A DNA stretch of 64,000 nt from Antechinus flavipes (taxonomy: Eukaryota), in NCBI RefSeq assembly GCF_016432865.1, contig NC_067404.1, forward strand, positions 42,966,001 through 43,030,000. The letters are read 5' to 3'. The notes beneath the pieces were generated by a model that did not search any database, was not told the origin of the DNA, and worked only from the letters and a program-made list of their open reading frames with translations. The translations under genes were made by a program, and so were the position numbers. Below are positions 35,460-41,384 of the stretch, one piece after another. The stretch's first letter is position 1, and the number at the start of each line of letters is the position of its first letter.

Positions 35460-36647
35460 ATACATATATATATATATATAATATATATATATAGATTCAA
35501 TATATAGATATGTATATCAATATACCTATATATCAATATATATTCAATATATCTATCTATATCAATATGTCTATATATCAATATATTCAATATATCTATA
35601 TAGCAATATATCTATATATATATATATCAATATATATTCCATATATCTATAAACCAATATATATCTATATATCAATATATATTCAATCAATCTATCTATA
35701 TATATTGATATATACATATATATCTATATATATTCAATATATCTATACATCAATATATACCTATATATCAATATATATATTCAATATATCTATCTATATA
35801 TAATCAATATATCTATTCAACATCTATATATCAATATATATTCTATATATATAGATAACAATATATCTATATATTCAATATATATGTATATATATAAATA
35901 TCAATATATCTATATATCAATATATAGCTATATATCAATAAATATTCAATATATCTATATATATAAATATATCTATTCAATATGTCTATCTATCTATATC
36001 TATATATATTCAATATATCTATAAATCTACACACTATATATATTCAACATATATTCAATTTATCTTTCTATCTATCTATCTATATATATCTCAATATATA
36101 TTCAACATATCTATCTATATATAAATATATATTCAATGATCTATATTGATATCAATCTATCTATATCAATGTATCTATTCAATATATCTATATATCAATA
36201 TATTTATCTATATCTATCTATCTATATATATCCAATATACCTATACATCAATATATATCTATATCTATATATCAATATATATTCAATCTATCTATCTACA
36301 TATCTATATCAATATATGTATCTATATCTATTATTCAATATATTCAATATATCTATACATCAATATATATCTATATAACAATATATATTGAATATATCTA
36401 TCTATCTATATATCAATATATTCAATATATATCAATATATAATATATATTCAATATATATCAATATATCTATATCTATATATATCAATACATATTCAATA
36501 CATCTATACATCAATCTATATCTATATCTATATCATATCTATTCAATATATCTATCTATATATATCAATATATATTCAATATATCAATATATATCAACAT
36601 ATCTATTCAATATATCTATATATCAATATATCTATCTATCTATATAT

Positions 36648-36686
<39 letters not shown>

Positions 36687-39130
36687 ACATCTCTACATAT
36701 ATCACTCTATCTATATATCTATATATCTATATATCTATTCAACATATCTATACATCAATATATATCTATATATCAATATATATTCAATCTATCTATCTAA
36801 ATATATATCTATATAGTCAATATATCTATAAATCAATATATATCTATATAACAATATATATTCAAAATATCTATCTATATATATCAATTCAACATTTATA
36901 TATCTATATATATTCAATATATCTATATATATATATCAATATATCTATTCAATATATCTATATATCAATATATCTATCTCTCTATATATCAATATATATA
37001 TTCAATAAGTCTATACATCTATATCTATATGTATATATATATATATATCAATATATATTCAGTATATCTATACATCTATACAATATATATATTCAATATA
37101 TATTCAATCTATCTTTCTATCTATCTATATATGTGCATATATATCAATATATCTATATCTATCTTATCAATATATATTCAATACATCTATCTATATATCA
37201 ATATATTTATATTTATATATATCCAATATATCTATACATCAATACATATCTATATATGTATATATAGAGATATCAATATATTCAAAATATTTATCTNNNN
37301 NNNNNNNNNNNNNNNNNNNNNNNNNNNNNNNNNNNNNNNNNNNNNNNNNNNNNNNNNNNNNNNNNNNNNNNNNNNNNNNNNNNNNNNNNNNNNNNNNNNN
37401 NNNNNNNNNNNNNNNNNNNNNNNNNNNNNNNNNNNNNNNNNNNNNNNNNNNNNNNNNNNNNATATATCAATCTATATTCAATATATATATTTTTCAATAT
37501 ATATCTATATATATATCAATATCAATCTATCTATCTATATATCAATAGATATTCAACACATCTATACATCAATATATATTTATATCTATATATATCATAG
37601 CTATTCANNNNNNNNNNNNNNNNNNNNNNNNNNNNNNNNNNNNNNNNNNNNNNNNNNNNNNNNNNNNNNNNNNNNNNNNNNNNNNNNNNNNNNNNNNNNN
37701 NNNNNNNNNNNNNNNNNNNNNNNNNNNNNNNNNNNNNNNNNNNNNACATATCTATACATCAATATATCTATATAACAATATATATTCAATATATCTATGT
37801 ATCTATATCTATATCTATATCTACCTATCTATATACCAACTCAACATCTATATATCAATCTATATTAAATATATATTTTTTCAATATCTATATATCAATA
37901 TATCTATCTATATCCATATATATATTCAATACATCTATACATCTATATATATCAATATATCCATTCAATCTATATATCTATATCTATATCTATATCTATA
38001 TCTATATATATATATTCAACATATCTATACATCTATATATCTATATATCTATATATCAGTATATCTATTCAACATCTATATATCAATATATATTCAATAT
38101 ATGTCTATATATATCAATATATAGATATATTCAATATATCTATACAGCAATATATGTATATGTATTCAATATATCTATATATCAATATATATTCAATATA
38201 TATATCTATATATCAATATATATTCAATCTATCTATCTAAATATCTAGCTACATAAATATACATCTATATATTCAATATATCTATACATCAATATATATC
38301 TATATAACAATATATATTCAATCTATCTATCTATATCAATTCAACATCTATATATCTATATATATATATTCAACATATATATTCAATATATATCAATATA
38401 TCTATTCAATATGTCTATATATATATATCAATATATCTCTCTATCTATATATATTCAATATATCTATACATCAATACATATCTATATATCAGTATATCTA
38501 TTCAATATATCTATATATCTATATATTCAATTTATCTATCTATATCAATATATCTATATATCAATATATCTATATTCAATACATATAACTATATATCAAT
38601 ATATCTATACATCAATATCTATATCTATATCTATATATATTCAATCTATCTATATATATCAATATATATTCAATATATATCTATATATCAATATGTCTAT
38701 CTATATCAATATATGTATTCAATATATCTATATATCAATATATCAATACATATCTATATATATATATCAATATATCTATTTATGTTTATATATCAATATT
38801 TATATCCTATATATATCTGTATATCAATGTATATATATATCAACATATCTAGCAATATATCTATATAGCAATATATCTATTCTATATATCTATATACCAA
38901 TATATATTCAATATACCTATCTGTATATATCAATATATCTATATCAATATATATTCAATATATGTATACATCAATATATATCTATATATATCAACGTATC
39001 TATATATCACTATCTATATTCAATATATATCACTATATTCAATATCTATATATCTATATCTATCTATATATCTATATAGTCCCAAAGACTATGGAAATAT
39101 ATACGGATCTAAATAGATCATATCTCTATA
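35460..39130. repeat. ~3.7-kb degenerate AT-rich satellite (ATATATTCAATATATCTATATATC-like units) with two N gaps
   Basis: Directly visible; G is almost absent from the + strand. Gaps at about 37297-37461 and 37608-37745. Confidence 0.95.
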
Positions 39131-39949
39131 TATGTAAATACATACATACATACATACATATATATGTCTTAAGCTACTTCAGTAGCTCCCTATTATTTCT
39201 GTGTTCAAATAAATATTTTTCTGACAATATAATCCCCTTTCAATTTTTTAGTCATTTGACACTTTCTTTCCTTTTTATATACTACAGTCCAATCATAATA
39301 GTTTAGTAGCGAACACAAGGTTTTTCAACGGTGAATTTTGAAAATTATCTTTGCATGTGTTTGGAAAAATAAAAAGCTATTGTGAAAAATATAAGCATAA
39401 AATGTCCACGCAGAAAAAGCTTAAAAGAGTGTCGAGAGTGGTCTCCTAGGTTTGCTTATTAAATATATACCAGGGCACCTTAATCCTTGATCATACTATT
39501 AGTAAAGGTCTACAACCCCAAATCCACTGTCATTTAATAGAATAATTTGGAGTGTAACTATGAAATAAGTTCACACCAGACTCTATAGCAATTTAGCGCC
39601 TTGCACCACAAATACTAGGGGGGAGGTGGCAGAGAAAAGCGGGAAGGGGGAGGGGTGGCCGTGATGGCAGGTGGCGGCCTCGAATTCGACGGGCCCAGAG
39701 CTGTCCCAGGAAGGAGCCTTCTCCTCTCGGTGCCCCGACTTCAAGCACACACCATAAACTGCCCTAAACCTACGGACAGGGTCGATGCCAGACGTTTATG
39801 AGAAATAATATTAAATCCAACCACTTCAATTCTTTAACCATATTTAAAAACAACATAAGCGAAAGTGAGGCTGGGGTGAGGGATGGAAGCCCACGGCTCT
39901 GTGGGGAGCACCCAAACAGTCCCTAAAATAAAACCCTTAAAAAACTTAC

Positions 39950-40129
39950 CTCTTTACTTGTTTATTCAAATGGCTGTCACCCCTGAGGGTCTCACAGAAA
40001 GGAATCTCAGGTACAATGGCTACCAGTCGCTGTTCTGAACTCCGTCTTCAACGGTAGTACCACAGTAGCCTGTGACAGGAAGTGCTCCACAAGCACGCTT
40101 CTTCTGGAGGCGTGATCTCGTGATAGTTC
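39950..40129 (-). other. Candidate non-coding first exon of a minus-strand transcript
   Basis: Consensus donor GAG|GTAAGT at 39950/49 and no ATG in the exon. An ETS core (CAGGAAGTG at ~40076 on +) and raised CpG density from 39600 to 40130 lie just downstream of the E-box array. The 5' boundary is unknown. Confidence 0.5.
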
Positions 40130-40449
40130 CACGTGACCCTGTGGCAAGTTCTGGAAACCTACAGGGGAAGAATCACGTGACCCTGTGGCAAGTTCTGGAA
40201 CCCTACAGGGGAAGAATCACGTGACCCTGTGGTGGTCTGGAACCCTACAGGAGAAGAATCACGTGACCCTGTGGCATTCTGGAACACTACAGGGGAAGAA
40301 ATCATGTGACTCTGTGGCGGTCTGTTACAGGGGAAGAATCATGTGACCCTGTGGCATTCTGGAACACTACAGGGGAAGAAATCATGTGACCCTGTGGCAT
40401 TCTGTTACAGGGGAAGAATCACGTGACCCTGTGGGATTCTGGAACCTAC
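40060..40449 (-). promoter_or_regulatory. Putative promoter/enhancer: homotypic USF/MiT-TFE/SREBP-type E-box cluster plus ETS site
   Basis: The minus strand reads GGTCACGTGA (USF-type) in most units; seven of eight units match TCAYGTGA (MiT/TFE-type). Function is inferred from motifs only. Confidence 0.5.
40130..40449. repeat. Minisatellite of 8 units (37-44 bp), each carrying one E-box
   Basis: CACGTGAC at 40130, 40174, 40218, 40260, 40420 and CATGTGAC at 40303, 40340, 40383. Unit approximately (T)CACGTGACCCTGTGGCATTCTGGAACCCTACAGGGGAAGAA. Confidence 0.95.
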
Positions 40450-40472
40450 TAATCTTTTTTTTTTTTTTTTCC

Positions 40473-40600
40473 TGAGGCATTTGGAGTTAAGTGACTTGCC
40501 CAGGATCACACAGCCAGGAAGTGTTAAGAGTCTGAGGCCACATTTGACCTCAGGTCATCCTGACTTCAGGGCTGGTGCTCTATCCGCTGTGCTACCTTAC
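40473..40600 (-). mobile_element. WSINE1 abutting the E-box array
   Basis: Reverse WSINE1 with poly-T at 40455-40470; CTACTA(A)TCTTT flanks suggest a TSD. Confidence 0.9.
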
Positions 40601-41384
40601 TGTGCTACCCTACTATCTTTTGCCAGAGGTTGTCAATAATGGGGTTATATATTTAGGGGGCCCTCAGAGACCGGCCATATTATTTTACTGAAGGGAATGA
40701 GGAGAGCCAAGTTGCTGAAGAAGTTGCTTAAGGACACGTGATTGGTTAGTCTCAGGCAAGATTTGCATCCAGAGCTTCCTGACTCTTAAGTCCAGTATTT
40801 TGATGTACTGTGGCTGTGTGGCAGGCACAGTAAAAATTGAAGACTGTGTCAAGGGCACTGGACCTGTACCAATAAGTCCTCCATGTCTGCATCACAGTTT
40901 GCAGAAAGACTCTCCAATTCAGTATAATGGGTTCTTTATTTAGAATAAGAAAAACCTGGGTTCAAATCCCACCACAGAGGCTTACTAGTTGTGTGACGAG
41001 GGGTAAATCATTTAATCTCCCTAAACTCCAATATCCTCAACTGTAAAATGTGGCTCAAACAGAGAATACATTCCAAGCATTTGGAAGATTTTTAAGTATT
41101 ATGTAAAAAAATAAAAAATAAAATAGAAATAGAAATAGAAAAATAAAATTTAAAAATGTAAATACTTGCTATTAATAGTCAACTTCACCAACCACTGATG
41201 TTTACCTTGGTATCAGGCACTGAGCTAAATTCTGGGGAAACAAAAACATAAAGACAGTCTCTCAAGGAGCTTGCATCTAATGAGGGAAGACAATGCACAA
41301 AAAAGAGCTGGAAAAAAAAGTATGGGGAGTTCAATGCAATTCAACAAACATTTATTAAGCACCTCCTAAAGGTGCTAATATATT

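Follow-up and report, generated by a model that had tools for sequence, protein, structure and literature searches.

A minisatellite of E-box-bearing units bordering a weak CpG island in an intergenic region of Antechinus flavipes

A short tandem repeat in which every unit carries an E-box can be read as a promoter enlarged by repetition or as a minisatellite that happens to contain a binding site, and the question raised by this locus is which of these descriptions applies. The first-pass annotation took the repeat for a candidate promoter of an unannotated minus-strand transcript. It lies in a window of 64,000 bp (the whole stretch of DNA analysed; G000:C7:42,966,001-43,030,000), on a contig of 86.6 Mb where the array is at 43.006 Mb; positions given below without a contig name are those of the window. 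The array spans 40126-40445 (320 bases). Splitting at CAYGTG gives exactly eight units, seven full and a cut eighth, each with one E-box, as had been described for eight tandem units of 37-44 bp. The unit lengths are, in order, 44, 44, 42, 43, 37, 43 and 37 bp, followed by the cut unit, and TRF reports a period of 42, 7.6 copies and 83% matches. All eight E-boxes were located at the claimed proportion of five CACGTG (40130, 40174, 40218, 40260 and 40420) to three CATGTG (40303, 40340 and 40383), with gaps of 31-38 bp between neighbours. CAYGTG is thus present in 8/8 units; TCAYGTGA fits in seven of the eight, a count that was reproduced, with TCACGTGA in four units and TCATGTGA, which has C>T at the CpG, in three (40302-40389, plus strand). 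The unit is approximately dyad-symmetric about two centres, TCACGTGA (the E-box) and TTCTGGAA.

The units are related by nested duplications, and pairs of them differ at 1-6 of about 40 bases. A 43+37 bp dimer is duplicated at 40260-40419 (40260-40339 and 40340-40419), the two copies being alike at 76 of 80 bases and the E-box C/T being among the four differences. This duplication, previously assigned to the last four units, does exist but comprises units 4-5 and 6-7. Five of the six E-box columns are invariant among the units, and so are eight of the next nine bases. The tandem repeat itself is far past chance expectation, and the presence of an E-box in every unit is a single event copied eight times, not eight events. 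The three TCATGTGA units would have arisen through two or more C>T events, or through a single one together with conversion.

The array is intergenic, with the GPC4 stop 48 kb away and the HS6ST2 island 287 kb further on. Pfam searches on C7 gave PHF6-like exons in two places (41.63-41.64 Mb and 0.56-0.58 Mb). They also gave two glypican genes, which occupy 42.05-42.34 and 42.92-42.96 Mb, and further along, at 43.57 Mb, an exon of a sulfotransferase; an HS6ST-type coding exon is found inside a true CpG island at 43.293-43.296 Mb. The order PHF6-GPC3-GPC4-HS6ST2 is, we take it, that of the therian X, the names being assigned from family and from known synteny, and by this gene order the array is X-linked, between GPC4 and HS6ST2. 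The two PHF6-like positions are separate genes with paired extended-PHD exons, possibly two PHF6-like X copies. A search of the genome for HPRT1 gave only three unspliced matches, on other contigs. The array locus was not found in the literature (subscription papers and genome-browser annotation being outside the scope of the search), nor were papers joining marsupial, X chromosome, GPC4 and HS6ST2; both gene names are absent from four text supplements of PMC13408496.

The neighbourhood is rich in other repeats. Between GPC4 and HS6ST2 there is an 11-kb tandem array (G000:C7:43,094,304-43,105,553; L041-L042) with about 125 or more copies of units of about 81 bp (69-76% matches). Two near-identical GC-rich segments with the same translation, oppositely oriented and separated by about 73 kb, lie on the upstream side of the HS6ST2 island (L053:1854-2447, minus strand; L060:5601-6155, plus strand), and at L058:962-4804 (plus strand) a LINE-1-type ORF2 runs uninterrupted over 1281 aa, directly preceded by an ORF1-like frame. 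Within the window, positions 35460-39078 are occupied by a 3.6-kb simple repeat of ATATCAAT type with extreme C-over-G skew, a short way left of the CpG island described below.

Mobile elements also border the locus. Where the array ends on the right, a SINE copy has inserted (40449-40607, minus strand; its family has five copies in the window, and a target-site duplication was recognized by eye). On the left the island is bounded by a repeat of very high copy number, presumably of L1 type, of which the 3' end with its A-rich tail is present (39311-39389, plus strand). Could the array itself be the U3 repeats of a solo LTR or part of another mobile element? Repeated enhancer units, a downstream AATAAA and CpG above background would suit a young LTR, and the first-pass annotation had named a full-length match to a known LTR/ERV family as the result that would contradict its reading. 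In the 3.19-Gb genome, however, a search with 39500-40130 (the flank) and another with 40040-40445 gave one candidate apiece, the query itself, an absence of further matches that is not in itself proof of rarity. The spaced unit pattern had all five of its genome-wide matches inside the array, and a 15-mer of the unit had eight matches in the array and 13 scattered singles elsewhere (control, 10). When 39400-40445 was compared by local blastn with the 464 kb and the other loci analysed, no match was better than E 0.038, and the unit had no notable match in its own flanks. By these searches the array is single in the genome and bears no sign of a repeat family, and we consider an origin from a mobile element extremely improbable.

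Genome-wide, arrays of TCAYGTGA (at least three sites, period 23-53 bp) were found at 10 places, one of them an unplaced satellite copy, and the pattern as such had 69 matches, against 67 for its reversed control. Intact TCACGTGA arrays occur at only two of the 10 places. The present array is the first of these; the second, on C2 (L068:1475-1625; G000:C2:51.776 Mb), is of 35 bp x 4.3, has intact GGTCACGTGA sites in units that are 97% alike and lies near GC-rich sequence. It is the natural comparison case for the X array. On C3 (G000:C3:273.35-273.42 Mb) and on C460 a 30-bp satellite extends over tens of kilobases, with TCATGTGA in many of its units.

Variation of the array was followed over 39100-40445 in four (X1, X2, X5 and X6) of six sequencing runs from two studies; the contigs of these four, about 3.1-3.5 billion letters each with even cover, behave as genomic DNA. 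X1 had zero differences from the window in four contigs up to 40372 and may be the source sample. Over 718 flank bases X2, X5 and X6 differ from the window at 9, 12 and 11 positions, respectively; X6 shares its organism label with X1, yet has these 11 differences. X2 has units 1-4 in the order of the window. The X5 contig passes from unit 1 directly into a unit exactly equal to unit 3, so that X5 is without unit 2. In X6 a unit of the unit-3 type precedes one that breaks the order of the window and whose E-box bears three substitutions (a single contig at depth 19); a 37-bp skip, seen in one contig at depth 4.6, is weak. X2 and X6 showed greater summed contig depth over the array, and X1 and X6 showed half depth, values which are proof neither of copy number nor of X-linkage. 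Taken together, the differences in X5 and X6 indicate that unit make-up varies between close lineages. With the nested duplications they bear out the earlier term "repeat-expanded"; "copy-number-variable" holds between close lineages (X5 without unit 2, X6 with a different order). A recombination hot spot with GC-biased conversion was rejected as an account of the locus, the singletons being eight strong-to-weak and six weak-to-strong; the devil PRDM9 is reported, as unconfirmed, to be without KRAB (PMC5519329).

The dyad symmetry of the unit raises the possibility that the plus strand encodes a hairpin or a microRNA-like precursor built of such units. The predicted RNA fold of the array is indeed strong (-153 kcal/mol, z -9.8 for the plus strand; -118 kcal/mol, z -4.8 for the minus strand). 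These z-scores are inflated by tandem structure, since 4-5 of 200 shuffled units repeated head to tail folded as strongly, and the dyad score of the best unit (p about 0.02) was that of a unit chosen after the fact. Units at 40137-40296 (plus strand) resemble the Rfam mir-1299 consensus in sequence and fold. The matches score 28.7 bits (E 0.0038) and 26.5 bits, well under the gathering score of 89, and at gathering score Rfam has zero families in the window. miR-1299 is possibly derived from the human 48-bp CER satellite. The match is a tandem hairpin with some sequence likeness, below family membership, and the dyad symmetry is a modest property that could aid slippage and does not speak for a structured RNA. 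A hairpin transcript is accordingly among the least probable readings, extremely improbable in our estimation.

Left of the array, at 39590-40135, is a single-copy CpG patch of 546 bp with 21 CpG, an o/e of 0.60 and a GC content of 0.51. The flank has 19 CpG in 531 bp, a count reached by 25 of the 870 stretches of this length in 464 kb, which places it in the top 3% locally. The claim of locally raised CpG is therefore correct in direction, but the rise is modest: the patch only just satisfies the lax island rule (200 bp/0.5/0.6), no stretch in it qualifies under the strict rule (500 bp, GC 0.55, o/e 0.65), and it is much weaker than the HS6ST2 island (o/e 0.76, GC 0.67). Its CpGs are being lost in the relatives. 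Among the 18 flank substitution sites (718 bases; X2, X5 and X6), seven are CpG transitions. Relative to other transitions the rate ratio was 4.4 when only CpGs defined by the window were counted (p=0.043; 95% interval of the odds ratio 0.8-18.5), 8.1 for parsimony losses (p=0.001; 2.2-31) and 12.8 when CpGs were counted either way (4.1-51). The numbers are small and were obtained without a true island as control, and the window-defined estimate is the unbiased one. As raised CpG transition is put down largely to methylation (PMC13245866), the excess points to a patch that likely carries methylation in the germ line and is being eroded; the interval of the unbiased estimate (0.8-18.5) makes partial or zero methylation compatible as well. 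The CpGs of the E-boxes are intact in five of the eight units of the window.

Beside the array lie the motifs on which the promoter proposal was built, and the CACGAG variant, the ETS core and the donor reported beside the array are each present. Read along this strand, the array is followed by the CACGAG E-box variant (40117-40122; CTCGTG on the plus strand), an ETS-type site ACAGGAAGTG (40075-40084, plus strand; five such 10-mers and 107 looser ones in 464 kb), a YY1-like AAATGGCTG (39968-39976, plus strand; pattern AAATGGC.G, 22 in 464 kb), a predicted consensus splice donor GAG/GTAAGT (39944-39952, exon side ending at 39950) and a CpG- and GC-rich stretch resembling a first intron. The factors to which sites at this locus would correspond are USF, SREBP, ETS and YY1. 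An AATAAA (39961-39966, minus strand) stands 11 nt ahead of the donor and is compatible with a terminal exon too. In five of the seven full units the minus strand also offers an acceptor (10 of 11 pyrimidines plus TAG, no other AG in 20 nt), so that a predicted exon could be entered at 40158, 40202, 40244, 40286 or 40366. With the TAG/G and pyrimidine tract supplied by a unit and the donor at 39950, a candidate non-coding exon of 209 nt is delimited (39950-40158, minus strand), in which all three frames are closed and no ATG occurs.

These elements would suit an active tissue-specific promoter, in which bHLH-ZIP factors bound to the array, together with an ETS factor, would drive a non-coding RNA from the minus strand; its start would fall near 40050-40130 and its splice donor at 39950, and its level would follow unit number. 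The order of the motifs, the weak CpG island in the top 3% locally, the candidate exon without ATG and the different unit number between lineages speak for it. So do the human TYMS precedent (PMC4184792) and the binding in vitro of MITF to both TCACGTGA and TCATGTGA, with only moderate loss (PMC10539308). The donor, too, is uncommon: 27 perfect donors were found in 464 kb, the chance of meeting one within 400 nt of any chosen point is by arithmetic about 2%, and the one at 39950 is alone in having the ETS site and an upstream CACGTG. Looser ETS sites are, however, expected by chance near 1.9 of 27 donors. CpGs are lost at a rate of the methylated type, the patch fails the strict island rule, the E-box is broken in one relative (X6) and an AATAAA falls within the candidate exon. 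Nor is there a coding exon to feed, as 0 of 283 ORFs passed the Pfam cut-off (those of at least 60 aa among 562 complexity-filtered ones; 665 ORFs of at least 45 aa overall). The candidate exon has 2 substitutions in 180 bases and the rest of the flank 16 in 538, a difference that is not significant (p=0.27) and, at 1.5% divergence, of low power. An internal or terminal exon moreover fits the motifs equally well. The promoter reading is therefore doubtful, but it has a substantial share of the probability.

Given the unit acceptors, the donor at 39950 and the AATAAA 11 nt before it, the candidate can be a first, an internal or a last exon. Were it internal or terminal, part of some longer non-coding transcript of the minus strand, the repeat would amount to a duplicated splice acceptor, with the E-box in the branch-point region by accident. 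That a strong acceptor occurs in five of seven full units, the last of which gives the 209-nt exon, agrees with this, and so does its rarity: YAG/G acceptors of such quality number 97 in 928 kb of strand, which makes them per 43 bp about as rare as the E-box. Pairing of acceptors with donors is at chance level, six of the 27 perfect donors being paired where about 4.5 are expected, and the raised CpG is left unexplained, so that we rate such an exon as decidedly unlikely. Two more strong minus-strand pairs, which would favour it, lie between the array and the HS6ST2 island (G000:C7:43,292,126-43,291,937 and 43,235,736-43,235,616), one of them adjoining the island. They could be exons of a divergent lncRNA as predicted from their splice signals; their number is at chance.

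The position between GPC4 and HS6ST2, and the eight sites within 320 bp, would also be in keeping with a distal enhancer, a homotypic E-box cluster acting on one of these genes at 50-290 kb with the donor incidental. Enhancers are frequently germ-line methylated, which counts for this reading. The sites, on the other hand, have no special conservation, and their 31-38 bp spacing departs from that of clock elements, in which E-boxes are paired at 6 bp (PMC2254435). An enhancer role appears unlikely, though less so than the exon.

The account that we prefer, and to which we give an even chance of being right, is that of a local-duplication minisatellite at the edge of a weak, eroding CpG island, near-neutral today. 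One E-box-bearing piece of about 43 bp at the island edge would have been duplicated locally again and again. Growth probably proceeded by slippage or unequal exchange, perhaps helped by the dyad symmetry of the unit, and with conversion between units; the nested 44-bp pair, the 80-bp dimer and the mosaic unit 7 (from units 5 and 6) would be the traces of repeated duplication. Mutation is known to duplicate binding sites locally (PMC3188502 and PMC8559717). The CpG patch may be fading, or a weak, tissue-limited promoter-like patch. USF- and MiT-TFE-type factors would bind the array where it is unmethylated, to little effect, and since the island is likely germ-line methylated and eroding, the array likely drifts close to neutrally today.

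Several results favour neutral local duplication: the array is unique in the 3.19-Gb genome, its unit pairs have 1-6 differences with nested duplications, and relatives only 9-12 of 718 bases away already differ in it. CpG transitions are in excess, the E-box columns are no better kept than their neighbours, the candidate exon is not significantly better conserved (p=0.27), and TCAYGTGA arrays are as frequent as the reversed control (69 vs 67). Against it count the unbiased CpG interval of 0.8-18.5 and the five of eight E-box CpGs that are intact, the restriction of intact TCACGTGA arrays to two of 10 places, and the donor, which is the sole one of 27 with ETS site and CACGTG and of a kind met so close by in about 2% of cases. 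Germ-line methylation, furthermore, is compatible with activity in somatic tissue.

bHLH-ZIP factors avoid methylated CACGTG. A copy-number-variable array gated by methylation can be envisaged, methylated in sperm and on the active X and open on the hypomethylated inactive X, where bHLH-ZIP factors would bind and drive a non-coding RNA limited to females; its source would be distinct from RSX, and the number of units would set its dose. In the dunnart, X methylation is 13.7% for Xp and 62.0% for Xm (PMC13408496). We regard this combination as very improbable.

If the preferred account holds, the array is a tidy, datable case of one binding site becoming a cluster by local duplication and then eroding through CpG loss. 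For these marsupials it also supplies a usable X-linked length marker. Should transcription start from it, it would be a VNTR-tuned X-linked promoter, and if that were specific to the inactive X, it would add a second RSX-like locus. With RSX the array shares X-linkage, a marsupial host and a repeat-rich neighbourhood, and its transcript would likewise be non-coding. RSX adjoins PHF6/HPRT1 (PMC13408496) and in the koala contains a 13-kb GC-rich repeat (PMC6633197). Identity with RSX was rejected, as 1.36 Mb and two glypican genes separate the array from the nearer PHF6-like gene, and no multi-kilobase GC-rich tandem repeat of RSX type is found among the 73 TRF rows of the window.

Among E-box systems, the clock EE-element has two E-boxes 6-7 bp apart (PMC2254435), whereas the boxes of the array stand 31-38 bp apart. 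CLEAR-box and TYR-enhancer sites of the MiT-TFE type are matched by the candidate sites of the four TCACGTGA and three TCATGTGA units, but the array has no lysosomal or pigment gene nearby. Closer in origin are the homotypic clusters attributed to local duplication by Nourmohammad and Lassig 2011 (PMC3188502) and Kaiser et al. 2021 (PMC8559717), in which sites bound in the germ line are prone to local duplications. As there, a site plus its flanks was copied head to tail with a spacing under 50 bp; those are statistical results on fly and human regulatory DNA, whereas the present array went on to a true minisatellite and its regulatory role is putative. By the features tested the array appears to fit the class of site-bearing VNTRs such as that of TYMS. 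In the human TYMS 5' 28-bp VNTR (2R/3R), unit number and a point change within the unit alter the number of USF E-boxes (PMC4184792). Both are tandem units, each with an E-box and variable in number, but the TYMS repeat sits within a known gene's 5' UTR and its binding by USF-1 is demonstrated, whereas the present array, with putative sites in its eight units, lies 48 kb from the nearest gene end and is losing CpGs.
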